A stretch of 62,520 nt of DNA, filler included, from Hausera hauseri (lineage: Eukaryota): assembly GCA_046269625.1 (NCBI GenBank). It is 10 parts of 10 records of this genome, joined end to end, with 100 filler letters (N's around TTAATTAATTAA, not from the genome) between each part and the next. Parts side by side here need not be neighbours in the genome. Positions count along the whole stretch, not along the records: positions 1 to 4,993 come from JBJURY010367593.1; 9 more parts are not named here. One strand, 5' to 3'. The notes under the pieces are model-generated. The model made no database searches, was not told the origin of the DNA, and was given only the letters and a program-made list of their open reading frames with translations. Shown piece by piece: positions 1 through 59,095 of the stretch. The position numbers were made by a program, and so were the translations under genes. Numbering within the stretch: position 1 is the stretch's first letter; each line of letters begins with the position of its first letter.

Positions 1-728
1 TTGCGGCATTAGAAAATCACATTGAAATAATAAAACTGCTTGTCGCCGAAGGAGTCATTGTAAATTTTCCCGATAAGGTTCGTCGAAAATATTTACGTAA
101 ATTTTAAAACGTTTTGTTCCGTTCACGAACAGCATGGCGATACTCCATTGCATTTAGCCGTTCGACAGAACAATGGTAAAGCGGCAAAAATTCTAATCAA
201 CAAAATGCACGAAATCGATCAGGTAAATGCCGAAAGAGACACAGCGTTACATTTGGCAGTATATCGGAAAATTTGCCGACAATTTCAGACTTACTGAAAC
301 GTGGAGCACAACCATTGGCCAGCAATATCAAACAGAAAACCCCGCTGAAGTTAGCCATAGATACGAACAATCCGGATGTTGTAAAATTGCTATTAGACAA
401 CATGAAACCGGTACATGTCGATAATTCGGTATGTTGAATTAATTGATTTTCCAATGGACTTTACCGTTAGCGTCATTTGTTGTTCACATCGGAAAAATGT
501 GATGTCGGTGCAATGAAATTGATATTGACGAAAATAACTGATGTAAATCAGACAAATGAAAATGGTGACACGGCGCTCCATATTGCTGTTCGAATGAACA
601 ACGAAAGAATTGTTGAATATTTAGTCAAACACGGTGCAGACATTCAGCAACGAAACAATGCCGGTGACAAACCAAGTGATTTGTCCAGAAATTCTAACAT
701 CGATAAACTTCTTGGCAGTGTAGATTAA
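1..728 (+). pseudogene. Ankyrin-repeat gene, copy 1 (3' part; one apparent frameshift near 261)
   Basis: Exons 1-77, 133-428 and 471-728 with GT-AG introns of 55 and 42 nt; motifs GDTPLHLAV, DTALHLAV, KTPLKLAI, NGDTALHIAV. The frame hits TGA at 295 unless shifted near 261-263. Confidence 0.8.
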
Positions 729-1313
729 TTTTCTTTTTTTTTGAAAAATAATTCAAACGGAAAACGTTGTATTTTTCGAAATTAATAAAACGAAGATTTT
801 AATGAATATCGATAACCATTTGATATCCACGAAGAGGAACGATGTGAACTTAGCACACATTTACAAAATTTTGTTTCTAGTGATTTTAATAAAAAATATT
901 TATACCTCGTATCAGTAGATCTTATAAATACAAAAATTGCGGCTATAATGAAATCATTTCAAACTATCTTAACCAAAAACGTGATATCTAGTGAAATATG
1001 ATATTTGACATTTATAGTGAATAATCAATACAATGGGACAAAAATTATATTCCCACAAAATTCTCCAATCTTAATGTTCCGCTTTATTTGTTTTCTTAAT
1101 GGAAAAATAAATTAAAAGGAGAACCAATAATGACCATTAAAGGTTCTTTGTCCACCTTTTACAATAATTACCATATTTTTGACTTTTCCAGAATTATTTA
1201 ACGAAATTAACGAAAATGACCTCAATAAAGTAAGGACAAGAATAAACGATGAATTGTTCAACGAATTTCCGGTAATGAAATTTAAATTTGGAAAAACTCG
1301 ATAAATTTCTCAG

Positions 1314-1857
1314 AAAATGGTAAATCCGTTGTCAAAAGCTGCCGATATCGGAAATAAAGATATGGTTGTTCTATTAGCATATAAATTTCCGAAATTGGTG
1401 AAAAAACCTGGCCAGGTTGAATCCTTATGTTTGAATATTCATATAATTCATGTCTCAGAATGGTATTCATCCATTTAACCAGGCTATCAAATGTGGTCAT
1501 TTGGAAGCTGCAGAAGCGTTAGAAAACTTTGGTGGTTTATCTAAAGCTAACGAACCAGACCAAGTACGTTTTTCGAAGAAGTGATTTTAGTTTTTATCAT
1601 TTTTTGCAGTCAGGAAGTTATCTCGTTCACTATGTCGTGATTAGAAATCGTGTAGATGTTTTAAAATATTTACATCCATATGTGGATAAAAACAAAAGCG
1701 ATGTAGTTAGTGTATTGAATTCTCATTGAGCACATTGAATTACCTTAATACAAAACAGAATGGCCGAACTCCGCTGCACATTGCGGCATTAGAAAATCAC
1801 ATTGAAATAATAAAACTGCTTGTCGCCGAAGGAGTCATTGTAAATTTTCCCGATAAG
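1314..1857 (+). pseudogene. Ankyrin-repeat gene, copy 2 (5' part, truncated at 1857)
   Basis: Phase-0 exons 1314-1415, 1459-1563, 1610-1705 and 1759-1857, each about one ankyrin repeat (NPLSKAA, HPFNQAI, YLVHYVV, GRTPLHIAA). 1781-1857 is identical to 1-77. Confidence 0.8.
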
Positions 1858-2226
1858 AAAAACAGTAGGTGCTTGAGAACCTTCCAAAATATCGTCAGAG
1901 TCATTAAGGTCAATCCCATCATCCTTGCAGCAAGACAACAAATCCTTCTCTAGGTGGTTCATAGAATACCCATCCGTTTTCTTCGTAGGAAGATCGTAGA
2001 ACGCCCGGTCCCAAGAATTCTGACATTTATTTTTGTTAAATATTGCAAGAGTGTGAGGGATACTTGTATCCGGCTTGCAGCAGATGAAGCACGGATTGGG
2101 TCTTTCGAGAGTTTGAACATTTTCATCAAGAATCAATCCATTTTGGAATGCATCCAAACATATGGTTTTTGCATCTTCTCTTTTCGTAGGCATAACAATG
2201 GGATCCGAAGTTAGATATCCATTCAT
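1858..2226 (-). CDS. Hypothetical Cys-rich protein downstream of Rep, 3' end cut at the element/host junction
   Basis: Part of ORF 1789..2226 (CFICC, SCC); its last codons read through antisense ankyrin sequence. No family recognised. Confidence 0.35.
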
Positions 2227-2247
2227 TTTGCATTGCGCTGATAGGGG

Positions 2248-2463
2248 TTAAATAATAGGATATAATGCGAGCAATTTGTCGTATTTCTGCATAATATTGT
2301 ATATTGTTACTTGGATATCACCGATGAAAACTGCGGCATGTACTAAATTGAGGTACTGTTCGTAATCTGTTGCATAGAGAGTCGCCATGAGGTTGTCTAA
2401 CAGTTTGCTTGTGCATATTGCTTTTGAATAAATCGAATTTAGATTGTAGCAAATATTTTCCAT
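2248..2463 (-). CDS. Hypothetical 71-aa protein downstream of Rep
   Basis: ATG-started ORF co-oriented with Rep; no recognisable motif. Confidence 0.3.
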   Translation of the reverse strand: MENICYNLNSIYSKAICTSKLLDNLMATLYATDYEQYLNLVHAAVFIGDIQVTIYNIMQKYDKLLALYPII

Positions 2464-2559
2464 TGAAATATAGACAGAAACCGAGACAAATAACTATGTA
2501 TTTAAACAACATATATACAAAGGCCAATCTATTTTTAGTAACATATTTGCTTCGTCACT

Positions 2560-3426
2560 TTAATCTGATTGGCTAGTTGATGCTGCAGCCCAGGCCTGAG
2601 TCACGGCGTCCTTTGTTATAGTCAGCCTTATGCGTTTTTTGGCTATTTTGGCCATGACATTAACATTGTTCTGTATGAGGAATTGATTTCTGGTTTCCGC
2701 AGATTCATATAACATCTGCTGGCAGCATTGATAAATTTTGAGGCGCTTTATGCAAGCCTCTTTCTGTACAGGGTCCATTTTTATCGGCCAGAAGTTAGCC
2801 TCGCTGTTGTAAGTAAAAATCAGTGGGACTTTTGAGAGAATCATAACCGATTTATATAAACCTCGAATAGACCTAATTTAAATTAAAAAGGAAGTATAAA
2901 ATTTTGATACCTGTTGTCGATTTCGTGGTTACACTGAATTATAGCCAAAAACAGGTCTGGTGCGAGGTCGTGGAATCCGATATCGTCGAAAACCACTAGA
3001 TCGTACTCTCCCGTCCACTCGTTAGGGCAATCATGAAGAGAGTGGAGCAGGAGAGGATTGTTCCCATGAAAGATAGGGAAACTGGTCTTCCCTATATTAC
3101 TTGAGCCGAACAGAATTGCACTGTTGATTCCTTTGTCCGGCTGGAATTGTATAGGTGGTAGAAGGAAGTTGAATTGTTTGTTAGGTATGAATCGTTCGCG
3201 GAATTTGTTTCTGATGTAGTTGTTAAGCAGGCGGTTTTTGGTGACATATTCCGCCCTGTCACCGTCCTTCATAATATCTAGCGCTTCCTGAGCTGTTGAA
3301 GCCTCGTCGAATAGCTGATAAACCGCCTTTCTGCTCGGATTATCTTTGTAGATATTGAGCGGCGCATTGCCCATACTTACAATGAGGGCATTTTCGAATG
3401 TATTTTTATGATGGTATTCATATACC

Positions 3427-3457
<31 letters not shown>

Positions 3458-3955
3458 AAGTAATACCTTCAGAACATCTGCTCTGAATGGAAGCACGTAC
3501 GCCCCCAATACTTTCCACATGAATGGCAGGCGGTACGGAATTTGCGTGTGTATGAGAACATGCAAATGATGAAAACCATTTGCGCTCATTTCTTCCTGTA
3601 GGCGTATATACCATCGCCTTTTGAGGTACATTGGCGTATAAACGCTTTCGAAATAGTAACGTGCATCGAAATCAGGAGTTAACTGGTGTACAAGCATAAA
3701 GTGCCTGAATGTGGCACCTTTTGGGGGCATAGCCATGGTTTTAATATCCTCAGGAAATTTTGATTGTAAAGCCGACCATGTATCTGCACTGAATGCATCA
3801 TTTTTGAATAGAGGCATGTCTTCGTTGGTTAGAATATGAAAATTACGTTTATATCTAAAGGGGGGATGAAAAATATTGAAATTTTATAATAAAAATTATA
3901 CTCACGTATTGCTTTTGTCATGGGGAGTAATAATTGGTATATTATTATCGGCCAT
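2560..3955 (-). CDS. rep: Rolling-circle replication initiator Rep (HUH endonuclease + SF3 helicase), 4 exons, 421 aa
   Basis: Exons 3955-3906, 3854-3467, 3425-2911 and 2872-2560 splice in frame (1266 nt). Motif I FMLVHQ, motif II HHLHVLIH, motif III YHHK, Walker A GSSNIGKTS, Walker B VVFDD, motif C LIFTYN. Confidence 0.88.
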
Positions 3956-4029
3956 TTTTAATATTTATAATATATATAACTATTTATATTTTTTGAGTTA
4001 AAAGTTAGTAGATAATTAATATGAAATAA

Positions 4030-4400
4030 ATTGAGCCGGCTCAATAGATATATAATTGTTTTAGGCTCAATGTGTGTGTGTTTATTCATTTGCTTAGTAA
4101 CTAGACAAATTTGTCTCAATGAGTGCGAGTGTAGACACGTTATGTGAAGTGTTTCTCGGCCTTTACATTCATTATCTGTCTGTCAATCAAGTGGCCACTT
4201 GAGATAGCGACCGCTGGTAATTACCCGACGTTGCTCGGGCAGTCAATGTAAATGTGCTACCGCTGTAATTAGCCGGTGTTCTCGGGCTTTGCATTACACT
4301 GTGTATTGTCCGAGCACTGATAAGCCCCGAGTGAATACATATGTAATGAGCCGGCCGAGACCCTATACGATCGGTCTTATATGAATTTGTATTGGCTCAA
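4030..4400. promoter_or_regulatory. Palindrome-rich intergenic region between divergent ORFs; candidate origin or bidirectional promoter
   Basis: Perfect palindromes ATTGAGCCGGCTCAAT (4030-4045), AGACAAATTTGTCT (4103-4116), TCAAGTGGCCACTTGA (4187-4202) and GGTAATTACC (4216-4225); GGCTCAA is repeated; locally GC-richer than flanks. Confidence 0.5.
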
Positions 4401-4590
4401 ATAGCTAATTTGTCAGCTTTAAATTATGGCTGAAAATAAATTCTTATTATTATTATATTTTTCAATTTTATTAAAGAAATAAAATCCCCGACGAAGGGTA
4501 AAATTTTTTAATTGTTTATTTAATTTTAATTGTAATGTAATGTATTATTATTATTATTATTAATATTTTGTAAATGATCAATATTGATAG

Positions 4591-4959
4591 ATGCGTTCAA
4601 TTGTTTTCAAAATGCAAGGCGCTGCTCAATCAGTGATTAATGATAATTTAGCTCGTAATGATGTCCAGGAGCGTGCAGTACGTGCGTTAAAAGAAAAATT
4701 TGAGGATAAATTAAATGAAATCATCAGGTGCAGTATTAGCGGAGAGCGTGAGGAGCTGAGCGATTTGAGGACTATTTGCGAAAACCAATTGCGGGAAACG
4801 ATGGCACTGCATGCCTCTATTATGGATTATAAGTGGAAGATGCTTGGCCTGCGCGATAAATATGTTCTCAAATATCAAGGAACTACGTATTACAATGAAA
4901 CCGTATATATATATATATATATTACTTTTATTTTTATTATTATTAATATTATTATATAG
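4591..4959 (+). CDS. Hypothetical helical protein divergent from Rep (tail probably intronic)
   Basis: 122-codon ORF with a charged, helical-looking sequence; from 4903 it runs into (TA)n and an intron-like tract ending in TATAG. Confidence 0.45.
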   Translation: MRSIVFKMQGAAQSVINDNLARNDVQERAVRALKEKFEDKLNEIIRCSISGEREELSDLRTICENQLRETMALHASIMDYKWKMLGLRDKYVLKYQGTTYYNETVYIYIYITFIFIIINIII

Positions 4960-4993
4960 GTATATGAATACCATCATAAAAAAACATTCGAAA

Positions 4994-5093: not shown

Positions 5094-8000
5094 CTCTCAC
5101 ATTGTCCTCAAAACTGATTTTGGCCAATGTAGCCCTTTGAACGCTTTTGGCTCTCTTTTTGATCTGACCACATACGTCTAGAGCATACATTTTGGACCTA
5201 AGGGCTATAAATCTTGAGATGATTGCCTTATTCACTTTGTCTTTGAATTTCCCAAGGAAATTTTTGTTGGATACTGAATAGTTGGGATGTTCTCTCGGAT
5301 AATCAGACGTATCCATATGCTGTGCCAGCTTAGCAAAGTTCTCATAAATGTCCACAGTATGGATCTGATAGACGAAACTATTAGTATACGTATACACCAG
5401 CTGTATGGACTTGAATCTGGGGATCATAATGTCATAGGGGAACTTGTACATCAGGGTCTTTGACAGGTCGAGGATTGTCATACCCATATATATGGGCTTG
5501 TTAAATTGCAAGGAGTTTTCAGCACATAGATGCTGACCAAGTTCTCGGCATATATGGTGCTGCTGTGGAAATTTGGCATGGAAATGAACTTCTTTACCAG
5601 GTTCCACGCAGAGACCAGTTCCATGTTGATCCTGTTGTGGATATTATCCATGGTCTTGCCAAAAACGCTGTTGTTGTACAGTTTGAATTGATCTTTCTCA
5701 AAGTCGTTCTTGGCATTGGTCTGCAGCTTCGTACTGAGGTATACGTAGGGCTGCAGCCACAAGGACTGGCTAAACTGCAGGGCTCTATGGATTTTAGTAA
5801 TGCGAAGTCTATGATTAACCGCCTGCTGGAGATTTATATAGTGGACTACATACCTCTCCTTAATACCCAAATGGCAGAGCAGCTTTCTATGCTTTCCATG
5901 GGGCGGAGGCTTGCTCTTAGGGACGAAGGGCAGCTGTTGATGCCTTGTGTGGATAGAAGCCGGATATTCCATATCTACCTTCAGTATGTATCCCGTATTT
6001 CCACCGGGATCCGGATTAAGTATAGGGATATGTTCAAAATGCTCGACCCACTTGAATTTATCATATGGCAATGGGACGCTCATTGCCCATCCATACAAGC
6101 TGTTGACATCCAGGTCTAATATATATGAGGATTTCTTGGATGGATCATACTGGTTCATATACTTGTTGTTTTTTTCACTGTACCGGTGGATGGCCTGGCA
6201 TATTCCGCCTCTAATGCCTCTCTCAATCATAAAGATAACGTCGTAATCCTTTATGATCTGCAGCCTGATAACTGTATGACTAATCCCTGAAGCCGTAAAG
6301 AAATGAGCCGGTTCCAATGCATGGCTCTTTATCGTAACATCCCTGAAGCTCTCAAATACATCCGTCAGCTGTAGCACCTCCGTCTTTAGGTATATGTCGC
6401 TGAATTCTCCTAATGTTGGGCATTGGAATACATCCCAGACGTTCTGAGCATGCTGGTAGTCCATATCATTGATATCGCAATCAGAGAGGATATTGTAAAA
6501 GTCCTTCTTGGCCGGCAATGAGGTCTCATCCAGTGTTTCCCATGAGGTTATGTAGTCATAAGGAAACACTCCTTTCCTCTTGACGAGATCAAATGTAGTG
6601 GGGAAGAACCGCTTCGTCTCCTTGAATTCTTCTCCCGGGAGGTTCTTCACTAAACTGTCAAGTGAAGACGACATAAAACGGAAACTGCCTACGAAGCCTG
6701 ATTCTTCCAAGATGCTTTTTAAATGTGATGTATTTTTCCTCACTGTTGGGTTCACATCAATGTTTCCTTCAGTGTTGCCCAGTTCCCGAATAATGAAATG
6801 GGAATCATAGCCACTGAGATTATGGAACACTATAGGCAAATATGTACATGTTTTGCAACGTAGATTGCAGTTGTTGCATGCCGCACCTCGATATGTGTCC
6901 GTGAAATGGCAATGATCCCTCACTTTATAATTCTCTTTAGTGAATGATTTGAAGCACAAGTAACATGCCGTTGCCTTGCGCTATTCTTCTTGCTGCTTCG
7001 ACATGCTCATTGTATCCTTATGCTACTGCTGCATATCCCCAATCCTATCAGCCATATCTTCAAGTCGTTTCATGAAATGAGCTGCTGCGCCTGGACCCCT
7101 GAATAAAAATGGTTCACTGTCCAGTCCTTTGGCGTACATGCAATATGATGAGAGCTCATAATATTGGTATGCCGTTGTGCTGCTATGTTGGGGATTAGGA
7201 TTTCAACTCTGAACTGGACGCAGGATCGCTTTAAAGTCGCAATAGATAACTATTGGGACTTTGATCTTCTTCTCGAACTCCTTAAATTCAATTTAATCCT
7301 CCTTGGGAAAATCTGGCCTGATACAATAATTGTTGATTCAGTACGTCTTGCGCTCCTTCAGATTCTCCACAGCCAACTTGCCCCTGAAATGGTACAAGCA
7401 TCGTTTGCATATTTCGATTCTTTCTTATGCTTCGTAATTTGGGATCTGACTAGACGTTCAAAGTTCTTTATCCAGATGAAATGCCTCTTTTCACCATCAT
7501 CTAGTAGGAGCAGATCCATATGGTCTTCCAATTCAGTATCACATATCTGCAGGGGATAGAATTTGTCCTCCTCATCCAATCCCAAGATATTGATTGATAT
7601 ATTGTTGAGTCGTCCGATTTTTTGACTTCATTTATGGATGGTGGGAACTTGATACATTGGAAATCATAGTTGTGCTGCACATCCTTATATAGCCAAACTC
7701 GTGAAGCACTATGCTCATCCCGTTCGAGTTTTGATAGAATGGCATACATGAAACACTTGTTGTCATCATTAAGGACATTGATACATGCCTTTTTCCTTAC
7801 GATTCATTCCGAGAGATGAATATAAGAACTGCCCCGCATTGGAGAGTACTTGTGCACATACACAAGCAATCTCTTGATGGTTGCCAGAGTCCATCCGCTC
7901 TTCTTATCTTGGCTCTCCCCGGATTCACGGATCAGCTTCTCGTGCGCCTCTTGCAGCCATTTTGCTATATTGGTGTTTTCCAATATGGGCCTATTTTTGG

Positions 8001-8582
8001 TTTTGAAGGCCCTATTGGATTCTTCGCCATCAACAGTGATGTATGTGGCCTCCAGTTTCATATTCACTTTAAGGACTTTGAGCTCCGCCATGTTGTCCTG
8101 AAGAATTCCCTCTGTTTCTTCCATTTTATATTCGAGGAACTCATGGAGCGTTGTTTGGCCAGTTCAATCAATAACAGCTGCGGCATTTTCTTTTTAATGC
8201 TGCAACATCAGCTGGCCACTGTCTGACTTTTTGTTGGATCAGCTGCTTCTGATGTAACTGCGCCGGACGTGGCTGTTCCTGATGCGGCTGAACGTTTCAA
8301 TTCTCTAATATGCTTCGCAGCTACTGCACGAGATCCAGCAGCATAATGCGAAGCATCATACTGCGAAGCAGATGCATCAAGATTATGTTGAGCATTGATC
8401 CGGCACACTACCTCGCATGCAGGACACACATAGTGTTGAGTCCTGTTGTATTGGTATTCAAAATAATGCTGAATCAAACTATGGCAATTCTGCTCCTCAT
8501 GTTTCTGCGCCATGCAAAATTTGTAGAATTTTGCAAATCTAAAAAATCAATTATTTGAGGAGCAGAAATAAAAACTCACCAT
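5094..8582 (-). pseudogene. polB: Polinton/Maverick-type protein-primed family B DNA polymerase, fragmented
   Basis: DHCHFTDTYRGAACNNCNL (endonuclease VII-like), FHNLSGYDSH (ExoII), RKGVFPYDY, YLKTEVLQLTDVFESFR (ExoIII), LDVNSLYGWAMS (motif A), KLYNNSVFGKT (motif B), decayed YTYTNS (motif C), LRSKMY. Several frameshifts and stops. Confidence 0.93.
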
Positions 8583-12082: not shown

Positions 12083-14242
12083 CCCAATGTTATGGAGAAA
12101 ATGACCAGTCAAATACAGGAAGAACTTCAGAAAAGTTATGGTGTAAAGTCAAGTGGAATATTCGTACAACTCATGTTACGCTTATTAGTGTTATTTTCAA
12201 CTTTTAAAAGAACCGAAACAATATTAGCTTATGATTGCAACCAAATATATGAAGGAAGTTACTACTCATTGATGGATCTTCAATCATGCCCAGGCGCTCT
12301 CCCGAGAAAATTAGAAACTCAAACGCAGAATTTATATATTTACTATGACAAAACTATGTTTCACATAAAAGGCCTGGAATGTTCTCTACGTGTATCCCGT
12401 ACTATTTCTCATTGCGGTCATCTACATCACGACGCTTACATTAAACCAACTACTATACCTAAATATGTGACGGTAAATCCCACATATTGTAGAGATGTGG
12501 GAGAAACCCAGCAATTAAAATGGGGAGAAATTATGTTAACCGCTATAAAAGGACAAATAACCCAACAAGAAAAATGGATTGCAGGTTATAAGAATGAAAA
12601 AGGAAATTGTAGAGGAGGAAATTTTGACACTGGGAAAGGAGTTGAAGCAGGTATCATAGTACATGATCAATATGAAGTTGAAATTAAGGATAATATCTAT
12701 GTTTTCGAAACCAGCACAAACACAATGGTAGATGCTTCCTTTTGCAAATTACAAACAGGACATTGCCATATTTGGACATAAACTATAGTGTGGACACCTC
12801 CCACTAGTTATGATTGTACATTAGTACAAATTACAAAAGCAGAATTCAATGTTACCACAGGAAAACGTTACGCCCGACATTATGAGACTAATTTTGAACA
12901 AACCAATATTCAAGTTATTCCGGAAGTATAAACTCCTAAGATCGTAATATCCAAAGAAATCAAAGGAAGAGTTAAATTTATACAATAAGATGCAATTACA
13001 AAATGTGGACAGCAAGTATTCAGTACAAATTACGACAATTATTTTATATTAAAAAGAGAAATTAAAGGTGCAGATAATTCTCCCACTAATAGAGCTCAGT
13101 TAGTGAATATTGCTGATTATATTGCAAATCGAGATGACTTCCTATTCTATCTAACTCACAAAACAATCGAAAAAATATATTCCGAAACAATCCAAAATTT
13201 TTGTAGAATGAATTTCGAAACTCTAAGAAATCGTCTGGCCATTTATACATCCAACCCAGAAATGATCACAATAACCCTCCCTTTCGGCGAAGGAATTCAA
13301 GGCAGAGTCCTAGGAGAAGTGTTATATACCTATAAATGTAAGCGATTAGAATTGTCATTAATTACCGGTACTCTATGTTACTCGGAAATACCAGTTAAGT
13401 ATAACGAGGAAATCCGATATGTTCAACCTATGACTAGAGTGCTCCTGGCACCACATACAATACCCACGGACATTCAGAATTGCTCCGCATTAAATAAGCC
13501 GTTTATCAAGTATGATAACCAGAGTCTTTGGGTTAGATTACCGGATCGTGATAGAGTCAAAGAAAAACCCAAGAAATTAACGATGACTAACTTAAAACAT
13601 GCAATTGAAACCAATATGTTTACCGACATGTCCAAATCAGCACTATATAGCAAAAAGGAGATTGATTCATTCGTGAAGTTTTTAGCATATCCCAGACAAA
13701 GAGAACAAATTGTAAATCGCGGACTACATCGAGTAATCGACGGCTCAGCCGGAGAAGGAAAGTGGGATCGGTTATGGACTCCAGATGCTTATACTAAAAT
13801 CGTTTCAAATCTGTGGTGTAAAATATGGGGAGGATTCCTGAAAATTAGCCAAGTAGCTTCAGGGTTTCTGGCCATATATTTCATTATACAGACCTTGAAA
13901 GTCTGTATCAATTCTGTATTAAACGTTTATGAGATCTATAATCTAACAGGATTATCGTTTAACATAATAGGAGCTCTATTTTCCCCACTTGGAAAATTTA
14001 TTAAGGCCTATCATGAGAAACAATGGCGAGGCAAATTAGCAAAGCATGTCGACTATAAATTAGAGAAACAATTCCCAAAGGACACTTCATCATGTTCAGA
14101 TGACAGCAATGCTCCTAAGTATTATCCTACGACAGGAGTTCCTAAGGATACGAGGAGAAAATTTAAGTTTATGAAACCAAAGAAAAAGGATAAACATAGA
14201 ATACCGGATGCACCATATGATAACAAAACAATGCCTATATAA
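12083..14242 (+). pseudogene. env: Chuvirus (Jingchuvirales)-like envelope/fusion glycoprotein with three in-frame TAA stops
   Basis: One frame from the contig edge to 14242 with TAA at 12779, 12929 and 12986. Hydrophobic signal then AYDC; CSLRVSRTISHCG, GNCRG, CGQQVFST, GEVLYTYKC, CYSEIPV...PMTRVL; C-terminal hydrophobic segments and a basic tail. Confidence 0.85.
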
Positions 14243-14472
14243 ACTACCAAATTTAACAGATTTAACGGATCCTTACGCAAAAAGAGAAGAATACATAAAA
14301 CTACGTAGCTTGCCAAAATACTTTCAGGAAGAGATACGTCAATCCATTATTACTCGGAATATGGAAAATAATCGCGTAACACTACCTGTTTCACTCAATG
14401 GGTACATTACCCTAAGTACCTTACCATCAAGTAACTAGGTCAATAGAAACTGAATCAAACAGAAATTCCCAT

Positions 14473-17355
14473 TTGGCTACTTCCGAACTTAATAATAACC
14501 CACAGACCACATTAAAACATACAAAACATACTAGTTGCTATCCAGACTTGATTGAACTCAAGGATAAGAACAAAATGTCAGAAATTGATACACATTCACT
14601 GGAGAATTTGACAGTTATTTTATCTAACAGTACCAACAGACATTGTTCGTCTAGTTATATACTGATGGAACCGCATATTGACAATCATAATGATGTATTA
14701 ACATTTCTTGAACTACTACGAGATAATAGACCATATACAACAGTTCATTTTGGTACTTTTGATTTGAACGCTATGGTGGATACAGGAGCTACTAAAGACT
14801 CACCTGGTACCACTTCGGCTTTTAAGCAATGCAGTAAACCTTATGGATACTGGAAAAGTAAACCATGGATTTGTGGACAGAGAGTCAAGATAACTTTTGA
14901 TGTGATGATTACTCTAGATGTATTTTGAGTATGTGTTACGAAAATTGAAAGGTGTGCACATAAACTTACAATCAGGATCAATTTGTCCAAATAATGAAGA
15001 TAAACCCTCTAGTTACAACAAAACAGACATCTGGTTAGGACATATTGAGAAAATACCACTTCATTCTCGAATGGTCATACACGCTAGAACAATTTTTCCA
15101 GACAACCGTGTCATTGAGTTTGTGCCAAAAACTCTTTGAAATGGGCTTATACTACTACACTATTGCGTTAATGTAGTCGGAGGCACTATTCCAGTAGAAG
15201 TTACAAATCCAACCCCGAAGTATGTCACGTTGTTCACAAAAACAAAAATTGGACAGGCTCTTGATACAACCCGTCGTGAGAATTACGATAATAAAGCCGC
15301 GACCGTTTCTCCCATCGAACAAGAAAATTCCGAAGATATATTAAAGGTTGTTCTCACGAAAGCTAAGAAAAACTTATCAGACGAATATTTAGAACACTTC
15401 TCAGATCTCATTTTTGAGTATCTCGACATTTTTGCAAGGAATGAAACAGATATCGGACGAACTGATCTAGTTAAATTCAAATTATCATTCATGATTGACC
15501 CGTTAACAGGAAAGGAAATAGACTTGGTACGACAACAAATACCAAAATGGTACCCTCCTCCAAAAGCACTCCAAAAGGAAGTCGAGGAGCAGATTCAAGC
15601 TGTGCTCGATAAAGGTATTATAAAGCCGAGTCAATCACCATGGCCTTTTCCCATAGTTATGGCTAAGAAAGCTAATACAACTAAACACCGTTTGTGTGTA
15701 AATTACGTTACTTTGAACCAGCATCTAATGAATCACGCTTATCCAATTCCATGAATTCGGAATATCATTGATGTATTAAAGATTGTAAATATTTTACCAC
15801 ATTGGATTTACAAAGTTGGTTTTGGCAAATCCCCGTAGCTGAAGAAGACCGATGGAAAACTGCCTTTAAGACGCATACCAGAGTCTATCAAATCACACGT
15901 ATGCCATTTGATCTAAAAACAGCGCCCACATTCTTTCAAAAATTTATTTGCCTGCTGCTAAAAGGAGTACGAGGCTTATCATACATTAATGATATTCTCA
16001 TCGCGTCTAAGACATGGTCTGCGCATTTAGCTGAATTAAAAGAAGTATTCGATCGAATTAGACTTGCTAAATTAAAGTTAAATCCGAAAAAAAGTGAATG
16101 GTGTAAGATAGAAGTTAGATATTTTGGGTTTGTTGTTTCCAACCAAGGAATTTCAACTAGTCTCGATTTAATATCCAAAATCTTAGAATATCCTCCACCT
16201 ACCAATGTCCACGAAATAAAAGCTTGGTTAGGGTTAGGAGGATTTTATGCTACATTTATACCTAATTTTGCGGAAATTAATCAGCCTGAATATAAATTAT
16301 TAAGAAAAGACCAAAAATGGGAATGGACAGAAGATAACCAAAACGCATTTGATGAGATTAAGAAACGAATAATATCAGCACATATATTGAGATACCCAGA
16401 TTTTTCGTTACCATTTATTTTGAAAACCGATGCCAGCATAAAAGTTATTAGTTATATATAAGCACAGCGAAATCCGGAAAAAACAACACAACACGTAATC
16501 GCCTATGGAGGACGTAGTTTGAATAATGCAGAACGAAAATACTCAACCACTAAATTAGAATTATTAGCTATTCGTGACGGATTGCTACATTATGAGTCTT
16601 ACGTTTACGGTCATAAAGTCATAATATTTACTGATAACAAGGCACTATTATCTTTACGTTCAGACAACAGACATGTATCAAGTCGACTCCAAAGATAAAA
16701 GTTGGAACTTTTGAATTATGATCTCGAATACCGATATCGTCCTAGCAAAGAAAACATAGACGCCGATGCACTTTCGAGAATGCCATATGATAAGATAGTA
16801 GCTGCTGTTTATAAACCATTATACAATGAGAATGGCAAACAACTGAATGAGAAAATAATTAAGGAAATGTTACAAGAACAACGCCAAATTCAAGTACGCA
16901 ATATCAAAACTTTACAAAATCAAGATCCCTTTATTGTTCAAGTCAAGCAATTAATCAACGGACAAGTGCATGACTCAATATCAAGTCGAATTCAGAAATT
17001 TCATGAAAAGATGCGAGAAAATCTTGAAATCGAAAATGGTATTTTACGACTAAGAGTCGGAGAGAGAAAACTAATTTTTGTACCCACACCGGCCATTAAA
17101 GCTGTCATGTTACAAGAACACAATTCACACTTAGCCGGACATCCATCCTTAAACAAGACATTGAAGCATATAACCGCAAAATACTATTGGCCTCAAATGA
17201 ATAAACATATTGAAGGATGGGTACGTTCGTGTAAAATATGTGCTACAAGAAAATATAGAGGATTTCGTGTAAAACCGTTTTTAGGAAGCTTACCTGAAGC
17301 ACGGAAGCCAATGGAAGTGTGTTCAATGGATATCTCCGGACCCTTCCCAGCTTCA
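14473..17355 (+). mobile_element. pol: Ty3/Gypsy pol (protease, RT, RNase H, start of integrase), decayed
   Basis: AMVDTGA; SQSPWPFPIV, RLCVNYVTLN, DLQSWFWQI, MPFDLKTAP, YIND (from YIDD); LKTDAS, AERKYSTTKLELLAI, DADALSR; H..LAGH...C..C zinc finger and SMDISGP. Confidence 0.93.
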
Positions 17356-53173: not shown

Positions 53174-54160
53174 CTATTTACAATTATCGAGAATCCAAGT
53201 GAAGGCCTCATCGACTCGTTCCATATTCATCACTGTCGAATTCAACACCTGCCATTTGCCATTAAGACTATTCAATTCCAGAAAATTGATTATTTCCAAA
53301 CAGGAAACCTTCCGTGCCGAAATATCATTGACGGCCAATGACAGAACTAAAATTGGAATGTGCGGTTTCACCCACATGTGCTGGGTTATCGAATAGAGTT
53401 CGGTTTTGGCCAATTCCCACAATGCACCATCGACAATATTCGAGTCAACTGCGTAAACGAGAGCGTCCATCGTCAGAAAGAAATCACAGGCCTGTGATGT
53501 TAATTTGAACACGTCATTATTCGATAATTCAAACAATTTGTTGTTGCTTAGCCGATTTGGCGATTTGACCGATCGCGTTCGTTCGTCTTTCGACGACGAA
53601 TAAATTATGCTCAAATCGAATTTCCGTGAAAAGGTTTTCGTCGCATTTTTCATTTCGAATGTAAATCCGGATCCGATTCCACCTGCGTAACCCGGAAAAA
53701 TTCGGACAATTCTCAGCGGATTTATCGAACTGTTACACATCAAATTCGTGACAAAACAACTGGTATCGGACTCTAATCCTGGTCCGATTAATGCGACTCG
53801 TGGAATGAATTTATAGAAGAACGATTTCAGTCGAATCATCATGTCTTTCAAATTGAAATTGAAATTAACGGATGAAAAATATGTCTGCATTTCTGGACAA
53901 CATCGCAAATAAATCTCTTTACTCGACATTTGATTTGCGTACCGGTGCCGATACAATTCCGGATTGGCATCGCTGCTGAGTGATTTCCAACGGATACTAT
54001 CGTGAACTAATTTCCGTCTCCAGAGATATTCGTCATTACTGATATCGTACAATCTCGTACAGACACACGATAGACGACAGAGGTCCTTTACCGATAAATG
54101 TGAGAGTATATTAAATAGTATATCATCTGGTAAACTGAGGAAATTGATGTCAAACTCCAT
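53174..54160 (-). CDS. FBXO4: F-box only protein 4 homolog (single coding exon)
   Basis: F-box LSLPDDILFNILSHLSVKDLCRLS...LWR, then PRVALIGPGLE, GIGSG, IYSSSKDER, DALVYAVD, PILVLS, WQV, AFTWIL, collinear with FBXO4. Confidence 0.9.
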   Translation of the reverse strand: MEFDINFLSLPDDILFNILSHLSVKDLCRLSCVCTRLYDISNDEYLWRRKLVHDSIRWKSLSSDANPELYRHRYANQMSSKEIYLRCCPEMQTYFSSVNFNFNLKDMMIRLKSFFYKFIPRVALIGPGLESDTSCFVTNLMCNSSINPLRIVRIFPGYAGGIGSGFTFEMKNATKTFSRKFDLSIIYSSSKDERTRSVKSPNRLSNNKLFELSNNDVFKLTSQACDFFLTMDALVYAVDSNIVDGALWELAKTELYSITQHMWVKPHIPILVLSLAVNDISARKVSCLEIINFLELNSLNGKWQVLNSTVMNMERVDEAFTWILDNCK

Positions 54161-57239: not shown

Positions 57240-57865
57240 GTGAAGCTGCAGAATGATGCAATTTTCCAGATTGTAGGCTCCACTGGAAGTGGCAAAACAC
57301 ACTTTGTCTGCAAATCTATTGCAGAACTACCGTGACATGTTCCATTCACGCGGTATAATCACATATGCTGGCATCAAGGTGTTGGTTATGATAAGTCAGG
57401 TTAAACACATCGGGAATTTTGTAAACTGAAATCGATAACGATAATTGATGGGTTTGATGAGAACTGGTTAGAGAGATTATTCAACGGTGACGTTATTGTC
57501 ATTGACGATTTATTTCAGGAAGCTGAAAAACAATTGGAATTCAACAACCTGTTCATGAAGATTGCATGACACCGTGGTGTGACGGTTATTTTCATTATGC
57601 AAAACATATTCCATCAGGCTAACAGCATCGAACAAGAAATCTCAACGTACACTATTTGGTGTTGTTCAACAGTCCCCATAATCAGACTATTATTGATTAT
57701 GTTTAACGACAAGCATTTCCTCACAAACGAGCCTACTTGATAGATGCATATCATGATGATACGACCGAGCCACACGGATACTTGTTCATCGACTTTACAC
57801 AACAATGCCCCGATGACATGCGTGTACGAACAGACATTTTCAATCAGAAAGGTGTATGTGTCAAT
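57240..57865 (+). pseudogene. Polinton A32-like packaging ATPase
   Basis: Walker A FQIVGSTGSGKTHFV, Walker B VIVIDDL, HRGVTVIFIMQNIF, HYLVLF, PHGYLFID, RVRTDIF; stops and frameshifts. Confidence 0.88.
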
Positions 57866-57888
57866 AAACAAATTCGAAAATTGACGAC

Positions 57889-58420
57889 ATGATTATAATA
57901 AAAATGAAGAATTTCCGAAAAACAATTGTTAAACGTAAACCTACCAAGCGGATGTCCGGCAAGAAACGTGTATCAAAACGAACCGCTATGGTCAAGCGAT
58001 TAATCAATTCTGTACTTCGAACAACAGCAGCAGCAACTAGACGCAAATTACCGTCACAGTGACAACGGTTATAAACAACTACGTCTCAGTATCAATACGT
58101 CCAAAATGCGATTCAAACGTAGTCTTCCGTACTTTATTGATTTGCTCAAGCATCTACGAGACTTAAGAGAAACGTACTGCGATCATTCCCACAATTTGTA
58201 GTAGACGATTTGATGGAAATTTTATACAATATCGATTTGGGTTACGTTGACATTGGTAGTGGAAAGCGGAATTTACTAAAGTATTGAAAACGACTCAATG
58301 GACTTGCCAACACCCGTAGTAAAGAGGTCATGTACCAGCAAGATGACAGATTCCTTGGTGCAATTCTACCGATTTTTACGTCATTACTGGGTGGACTCAT
58401 TGGTTCTGCAGCCTAGTATA
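57889..58420 (+). pseudogene. Two small Polinton genes (a very basic protein and a core-like protein), decayed
   Basis: KRKPTKRMSGKKRVSKR; LMEILYNI.LG.V...FLGAILPIFTSLLGG; located between the ATPase and the integrase. Confidence 0.45.
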
Positions 58421-58559
58421 AACAACGGCGGCAAGTATATTATGATTTCGCGATATGGATGCATGATTTTTATCTTTCTATCCCAGTTTACCGAATCTTT
58501 CATTTACGTTTCGTTCTAATTGCTGTAATACTAACAAAAACAACATCATCGACAACAAC

Positions 58560-59095
58560 TATTGGAGACGTGTGGTTCGACACGTGTCATCCTCTCAGGT
58601 ATACTGGCGTCGACAAACTGTCAAAGAATGTCAAACAGACTCGGAAACAGACCCAACATTGGCTCGGGACAGTTAGCATACAGCCTAAACAAACCGATAA
58701 GAAGGCGGTTTCCAACTCGTGCATACCGTGCCGCCGGTGTAAATAATGTATGGCAAATGGATCTGATGGGAATTATTCCGTACGCTAGCATCAACGACGG
58801 GTATCGGTACGTCCTTACATGTATTGATTGTTTAGTCGTTTTGCACGTGCAATTGCCGTAAAATCTAAATCCGGTAAAGAGACTGCCGACACTGTTCACA
58901 GATTAATTGAACAACAACAACCATCGAAACACGTACAAACAGACCTGGGTAAAGAATTTTACAACTCCTATGTCGCACTGGTCTTGAGGCAGTTCGGTGT
59001 AAACCACTACTCGGTGTTTTCACAATACTAGGCTGCACTCGTTGAACGATTTAATCGAACCTTACGCGGCCGACTGCACAAATTCTTTACCTTAG
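58560..59095 (+). pseudogene. Polinton retroviral-like DDE integrase, N-terminal and catalytic part
   Basis: AYSLNKPIRRRFP...WQMDL...GYRYVLTCID / FSRFA...VQTDLGKEFYN...VERFNRTL; frameshifts and a stop. Confidence 0.9.

Follow-up and report, generated by a model that had tools for sequence, protein, structure and literature searches.

Introduction

CRESS Reps nick the origin, stay bound through the tyrosine of motif III, unwind the DNA as hexamers and release single-stranded circles, and the Reps of mastreviruses and genomoviruses are known in a one-intron state. The Reps most similar to the protein described here belong to unclassified CRESS-DNA viruses and cruciviruses of the 'GKTxFALAHFxxPL' helicase lineage, a named member of which is Periparus ater CRESS-DNA-virus sp. 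(QTE03536.1). They share with it an HUH nuclease, an oligomerisation domain and an SF3 helicase with all motifs. Thirty-six crucivirus Reps were predicted to be spliced (PMC7468197), and two crucivirus Reps carry an intron between motifs I-II and motif III (PMC5822885), the same interval as intron 2 below. Background on CRESSV6 and pCRESS is given in PMC6668415.

The eukaryotic HUH transposons described in the literature consulted are Replitrons, without a helicase, and Helitrons, with an SF1 helicase (PMC10288648), in agreement with the first-pass annotation of the present locus. Replitrons are eukaryotic and capsid-less, encode a CRESS-related HUH protein in an intron-bearing gene and have non-autonomous partners; Replitron-1 has two introns and is a precedent for intron-bearing HUH transposases. 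However, their homology to CRESS Reps is limited to the Rep domain, and their reported hosts are plants, algae and protists (PMC10288648). Helitrons occur in animals, move by a rolling-circle mechanism and fuse an HUH nuclease to a helicase. In them, a Y2 Rep is joined to an SF1B (Pif1) helicase (PMC10288648). Viral Rep genes also reside in eukaryotic genomes as endogenous CRESS Rep elements, a geminivirus-like element of Tuber and parvovirus-like repeats of Saccoglossus and planarians, some expressed and some multicopy (PMC3198968). The Tuber element has separate transposases and terminal inverted repeats, the animal repeats are parvovirus-like, and the word 'intron' is absent from the main text of that paper (PMC3198968). 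Endogenous Reps were also reported in PMC6186406, where the screen for endogenous viruses retained only uninterrupted Reps.

The Rep locus described here was found in a window of 62,520 nucleotides from the Hausera hauseri assembly, comprising ten contigs joined by N-spacers, and lies on the first of these (1-4993). In contrast to Replitrons, its protein contains a full SF3 helicase and the genome is animal-like, which places it outside that group. In contrast to Helitrons, it is a Y1-type Rep with an SF3 helicase and about 420 residues, and no Rep exon matches the Pif1 family, which places it outside the Helitrons as well.

Results

Exon-intron structure of the Rep gene

The first-pass annotation had assembled a CRESS-type Rep from four exons by removing three small introns, and at the sequence level the four-exon model holds, with two or three predicted introns. 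All features lie on the minus strand; the three introns were located at the coordinates and with the ends proposed, and their lengths of 51, 41 and 38 nt were confirmed. The exons sum to 1266 nt, that is, 421 codons and a stop, each exon being in the predicted phase, so that the proposed stop-free frame of 421 residues stands. Putative exon 1 (3906-3955) has 16 codons, with an ATG at 3955 and TATAAA at 3988, and its phase keeps the frame. Intron 1 (3855-3905, 51 nt) begins with a GTGAGT donor, has a pyrimidine tract before its AG and introduces an in-frame stop if retained. Exon 2 (3467-3854) encodes the N-terminal extension and most of the HUH nuclease, with a motif I-like sequence at 3703-3686 and motif II at 3571-3551, and contains in-frame ATGs. 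Intron 2 (3426-3466, 41 nt, 93% AT) separates motifs II and III and has a near-identical second copy at 4920-4959. Exon 3 (2911-3425) carries the YxxK of motif III (3416-3405), the oligomerisation domain, Walker A (3107-3081) and Walker B (2996-2982). Intron 3 (2873-2910, 38 nt, 84% AT) separates Walker B and motif C, and exon 4 (2560-2872) encodes motif C (2823-2806), the arginine finger (2751-2740), a C-terminal tail and the stop. As had been proposed, removal of intron 2 places the YxxK in frame after motif II, and removal of intron 3 links Walker B to motif C, with the homologue profile alignment continuous over the junction.

Every GT-AG pair of 25-120 nt near each junction was scored with the homologue profile. 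At junction 2, five of 33 pairs keep the frame and the predicted intron 2 scores best, with a lead of only 2.4 bits over an alternative donor with the same acceptor. At junction 3, the predicted intron is the best of six frame-keeping pairs (30 in total) by a margin of 7.4 bits. At junction 1, two of ten pairs keep the frame and are tied, because the profile does not reach that part of the protein; the alternative acceptor gives an intron of 117 nt. Exon 1 lies outside the homologue profile, so exon 1 and intron 1 are without homology support, and intron 1 is a putative intron indicated by splice signals, the most canonical of the three. The AT contents of introns 1-3 are 0.76, 0.93 and 0.84, respectively, values reached by 0/1066, 0/1106 and 0/1118 exon windows of the same length. 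Three intron candidates in the ankyrin-repeat gene of the same contig, chosen by eye, measure about 42-55 nt, in line with the earlier proposal that the predicted introns (38-51 nt) are of host size. The Rep mRNA is probably made by the host spliceosome.

It is very improbable that the locus is a decayed viral fossil or an assembly artefact, in which two frameshifting AT-rich inserts are bounded by GT and AG by chance. Such an origin would suit the largely simple-repeat sequence of intron 2, the position of the gene B junction (below) in a (TA)n run, a place where mis-joins can arise in assembly, and the fact that splicing is predicted from DNA alone. However, the GT and AG bounds of both frame-restoring inserts fall exactly at points over which the alignment of homologues continues unbroken, and there are no stops in 421 codons.

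Homology and conserved motifs of the Rep protein

Exon 3 retrieved 51 proteins with E<=1e-3 among 1.84 billion in a phmmer search (best E 6.3e-9, identity 24-40%). When a profile of these 51 homologues was compared with the 1412 six-frame segments of the window, the three Rep ORF pieces ranked as the top three, with E values of 1.5e-32, 2.1e-11 and 0.011, the next segment (0.019) being an unrelated P-loop. The profile scores are 106 bits for exon 3, 38 bits for exon 4 and 11.5 bits for exon 2; the exon 3 score is circular, the homologues having been found with this exon, whereas exons 2 and 4 are independent. The 38 bits of exon 4 were obtained against a profile built without exon 4, and the match is colinear with exon 3. 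With X placed at each junction, the read-through reaches 169 bits and aligns continuously over junctions 2 and 3. A profile of 43 of these homologues matches Reps of known structure from circoviruses, nanoviruses and geminiviruses (best E 4e-19). The HUH-SF3 assignment of the first-pass annotation is supported. Exon 3 also matches CRESS Reps in BFVD (best E 5.6e-7). Pfam matches with E<=0.01 were found in 26 of 30 scanned homologues, nearly all to Viral_Rep or Gemini_AL1/AL1_M, many of them below the curated cut-off.

Exon 2 is the weakest part of the Rep identification. Its hhalign match to the homologues (E 3e-5, probability 73%) spans motifs I and II, its ESM Atlas score to CRESS Rep clusters is 0.93 with recognition below the usual threshold, and its Pfam match to Gemini_AL1 (E 0.043) is below the cut-off. 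The exon 2 model has a pLDDT of 86 and its top six structural matches are all HUH Reps; however, their Z scores of 6.8-7.0 are not clearly higher than those of unrelated alpha/beta folds (ACT domain, 6.7), and the model was guided by the Rep alignment.

Exons 2-4 are colinear with CRESS-virus Reps and the catalytic motifs are in place, as the description of an HUH-SF3 Rep with intact motifs had implied. HUH motifs I-III all occur, motif I being degenerate, and all SF3 elements (Walker A, Walker B, motif C and the arginine finger) are found; the protein also has an N-terminal extension of ~80 residues and a C-terminal tail. The planarian PEVE Rep gave only a weak fold match (rank 16, TM 0.28). 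With exon 3 as query, a word-seeded search for homologues among longer proteins and a plasmid search, the latter also run with one homologue, gave no usable match, and a PDB sequence search returned chance matches only. A PDB fold search with the exon 3 model, which covers half a helicase, and an Rfam search gave no usable match either. Two metagenome loci considered as relatives (L058 and L059) were rejected as bacterial ferredoxin-like chance matches.

Comparison with viral relatives

The same Rep lineage is encoded by 56 IMG/VR loci of 2-7 kb, and in all 56 the Rep ORF is unsplit: 42 are single, 12 are cut only at contig ends and 2 have terminal duplications, although in a few of them the profile does not reach the N-terminal part and one upstream intron is possible. 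The window Rep, with two or three predicted short introns, differs from all of them in this respect. Over the oligomerisation-helicase columns its identity to the 126 other sequences does not exceed 28%, and its terminal branch is the longest among 127 (1.72, against a median of 0.56) in a FastTree phylogeny that was midpoint-rooted, with 5 of 132 rows removed for gaps, local support of 0.64-0.87 and no named reference families. Second ORFs of the relatives (25 ORFs from 23 loci) match capsid families in ten cases: eight a tombus-like S domain, one the geminivirus/STNV coat and one a circovirus capsid below the cut-off. The tombusvirus-like capsid of cruciviruses was not recognised in the Rep contig; no capsid-like ORF was recognised in 1858-4993, and the contig stops inside gene B. 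The contig being ~5 kb and ending in gene B, a capsid gene could lie beyond its end. Searches of the viral contigs with exon 3, with the downstream ORF and with gene B for close relatives gave no usable match.

These comparisons bear on the proposal that the Rep comes from a CRESS virus lineage, so far undescribed and perhaps multipartite, whose Rep is rich in introns. Such a virus would be either integrated here or an accompaniment of the animal in the sequenced sample, wrongly joined to the ankyrin repeat. This explanation is somewhat unlikely. The nearest relatives are circular viruses that encode a capsid of tombus-, gemini- or circo-like type, and spliced viral Reps exist (PMC7468197, PMC5822885), both of which favour a virus. 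On the other hand, no capsid was recognised in the contig, the branch is the longest of the 127, and two or three introns are without viral precedent in the literature searched. In addition, a strict search of 1-4993 for the canonical NANTATTAC nonanucleotide stem-loop found none; of the 56 relatives, only 18 passed the same test.

Sequences flanking the Rep gene

The region upstream of Rep (3956-4425) is non-coding and contains three perfect palindromes (4030-4045, 4103-4116 and 4187-4202) and a GC-richer structured block (4181-4400, 48% GC). Folding of single-stranded DNA gave z scores of -2.77 for 4020-4410 and -1.21 for 4180-4400 on the other strand. The region is a candidate origin or promoter. 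The 4030-4045 palindrome also turns up in 70 stretches of viral contigs, but none of 73 scanned loci has a related Rep or longer shared DNA and the matches were dismissed as coincidence; a sigma-70 promoter scan is not applicable to a eukaryote. One of the contigs scanned (2100-5187 of L057, the contig of L110 and L111) is bacterial and prophage-like, with 11 dispersed intergenic copies of a REP-like 14-nt palindrome, and is unrelated to the Rep finding.

Beyond the upstream region lies gene B (4591-4993, plus strand), oriented head-to-head with Rep, with a 104-codon exon (4591-4902) and a 57-nt GT-AG intron (4903-4959), and cut by the contig end. The 3' part of this intron is a copy of intron 2 and is followed by a near-identical start of exon 3 in the same phase; together, the intron 2/exon 3 start and its gene B copy form a 74-nt inverted repeat (96%). 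The gene B exon has weak similarity to exon 2 (36/2000 shuffles score as well, about p 0.02), does not match the Rep homologue profile and has no HUH motif that could be seen. Gene B is either a derivative whose N-terminus differs or has decayed, or else the product of a mis-join at the (TA)n run. A possible first exon of gene B with a 93-nt GT-AG intron occurs at 4426-4590 (plus strand); its start resembles the Rep start, and its frame has a stop in a simple-repeat stretch.

On the other side, a downstream gene (1858-2463) lies on the same strand as Rep, with an in-frame stop at 2248-2250 across which candidate introns were found, and runs into the ankyrin unit. It has no Pfam match, no convincing PHROG match and no viral relative. 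The remainder of the contig (1-1857, plus strand) is a host-like ankyrin-repeat gene with short introns (Pfam Ank). Its unit of 1780 nt is arranged head-to-tail or in a circle, as 77/77 nt are repeated at 1781-1857. The 1857/1858 junction with the Rep-side sequence falls exactly at an exon end, at the GT donor of the ankyrin unit.

Setting of the Rep contig

The host of the Rep contig looks like an invertebrate, with an animal-like genome. An FBXO4-like gene without introns (53174-54160, minus strand) has environmental relatives at 62-68% and is ~30% identical to nemertean, cnidarian and nematode relatives; the environmental relatives suggest a poorly sampled invertebrate group. The first contig and that of the FBXO4-like gene probably derive from one organism, because the ankyrin and FBXO4 genes share a dinucleotide bias (CpG 1.45 and 1.62, respectively). 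The CpG value of the Rep element is 0.96 and its dinucleotide profile differs from that of the host-like sequences, which fits a foreign origin rather than long residence and is a point in favour of a virus.

The earlier description of the gene as standing amid otherwise decayed mobile DNA is misleading, as the decayed retrotransposon and polB pieces sit on contigs other than that of Rep. They include a broken Ty3/gypsy-like element (12083-17355, plus strand) with a Monjiviricetes (chuvirus-like) fusion glycoprotein (Pfam PF24664, E 1.7e-56 and 1.4e-16) and a broken protein-primed polB with an endonuclease VII domain (5094-8226, minus strand). Judged by eye, the latter and fragments at 24880-27245 and 57240-58800 resemble Polintons or adintoviruses. 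An open frame of ~3640 codons (30854-41734, minus strand; 52% GC) has long internal repeats and a composition unlike that of the other contigs, matched no Pfam family over 37000-41734 and possibly comes from a symbiont or contaminant.

Diverged copies in two sequencing runs

The Rep locus was found in two runs, X1 and X2, of two studies, X1 possibly being the source sample, and in both the ankyrin unit is present with Rep. No RNA run was among those carrying the locus, an outcome that says nothing about expression. At 80% likeness, both runs hold further contigs that match parts of the Rep gene with many differences, which, judged by depth, would belong to separate copies. Of 48 difference rows, 40 formed the base of the substitution count, 30 of these 40 in Rep exons; four rows between compensating indels, one double-counted row and ten rows outside Rep exons were removed beforehand. 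Third positions take 20 of 26 changes among the counted rows (p 7e-6), of 22 codons that changed, 15 did so synonymously (p 2e-6 for an expectation of 0.205, p 0.002 for 0.35), and six of seven replacements are conservative. The synonymous excess is evidence for the reading frames as predicted, chiefly in exon 3, and speaks against a fossil or artefact, as does one X1 unitig (1837-3374) that spans intron 3 without any difference. The sequence data show what appears to be a multicopy Rep family subject to purifying selection.

Two upstream blocks (4021-4061 and 4255-4400) are found again, at varying spacing, in several contigs of both runs, as are the first 56 nt of the downstream gene in other contigs. 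One X2 contig of 1094 nt joins 2408-2463, the start of the downstream ORF, to 4021-4205 and has no room for Rep, as expected of a non-autonomous copy. The joints between blocks were called at low likeness, and repeats or other organisms can produce such joints. No joint closing the Rep region into a circle was found among the contig joints of the runs. In a low-depth record of X2 (record 13), 4038-4279 is joined to 4397 on the opposite strand, inside the structured upstream region; this strand switch hints at an inversion or a hairpin end.

In multipartite genomes, one non-coding block is shared in front of different genes. The recurrence of a shared non-coding block before different genes recalls this arrangement, so the locus is possibly part of a multipartite virus whose components share a common region, with the capsid on another component or past the contig end. 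Purifying selection is also expected among viral strains. However, a near-identical sequence occurs together with the ankyrin unit in a second study, which argues against a virus.

The same copies bear on a further alternative, a domesticated host gene family, in which an old endogenous Rep gained introns, was duplicated and now serves the host. Its roles would be, for example, DNA processing, local gene amplification or antiviral interference, and gene B would be a derivative without the nuclease. We regard this as unlikely. Intron gain, the long branch and diverged copies under purifying selection agree with it, as do the N-terminal extension of ~80 residues and the C-terminal tail. Expressed endogenous Reps are known in eukaryotes (PMC3198968), and the Reps captured by avipoxviruses are single-domain derivatives under purifying selection (PMC10193959). 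Those captured Reps lost the HUH motif, however (PMC10193959), whereas all catalytic motifs are retained here, and the palindromic non-coding blocks shared with Rep-less loci seem to resemble the cis-acting sequences of an element more than ordinary promoters.

The ankyrin unit contig closes on itself in X2, and the depth of the unit relative to the Rep unitig is about 680-760 against 21 in one run and 39 against about 3 in the other. As contig depth does not measure copy number and the values are uncalibrated against single-copy host genes, this contrast is a hint only. The X1 unitig overlaps the ankyrin unit by 21 nt, which is below a formal bridge. Since the ankyrin unit adjoins the Rep side, one may speculate that Rep has a role in its amplification.

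Discussion

Tentatively, the Rep gene is best read as a working, predicted-spliced member of a multicopy family of capsid-less rolling-circle elements, derived from CRESS viruses and residing in invertebrate nuclear DNA. The first-pass annotation had offered an undescribed virus lineage, a Rep-driven transposon or a domesticated gene. A capsid-less element or a domesticated family fits somewhat better and a free virus less well, because the copies are diverged and selected, neither a capsid nor a canonical origin was recognised in the contig and the locus is linked to a host-like gene. New here are the diverged, mostly synonymous Rep copies with shared upstream blocks in two runs. The evidence for an element consists of several diverged copies and one Rep-less copy, all seen as contig fragments; that the copies are diverged rather than near-identical is unlike a recently active transposon.

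In such an element, Rep would use its motif III tyrosine to nick the DNA at a site within the structured upstream region, and its hexameric SF3 motor would displace the strand. Once freed, the single-stranded circle would serve as a template for copying and may re-insert, and Rep would mobilise in trans those Rep-less copies that have the upstream block. The introns would have been acquired over long nuclear residence. A more specific proposal, possible but doubtful, is a group of animal rolling-circle transposons apart from Helitrons and Replitrons. Its members would be driven by a full HUH-SF3 Rep of the CRESS type with introns of host size, and would be accompanied by partners without Rep and by gene B as a head-to-head derivative sharing the helicase exon. 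They may amplify adjacent host DNA, for example the ankyrin unit of 1.78 kb, through rolling-circle replication. In the main texts searched, mostly of freely available papers, a multi-intron HUH-SF3 Rep was not reported from any animal genome.

Because tiny introns break the Rep ORF, endogenous-virus screens restricted to uninterrupted Reps would overlook such genes or take them for pseudogenes, and the class could be under-counted. The Rep lineage would also extend to an animal-like genome, and an HUH-SF3 family, if true, would represent a direct transition from virus to transposon, or from virus to host gene, in an animal.
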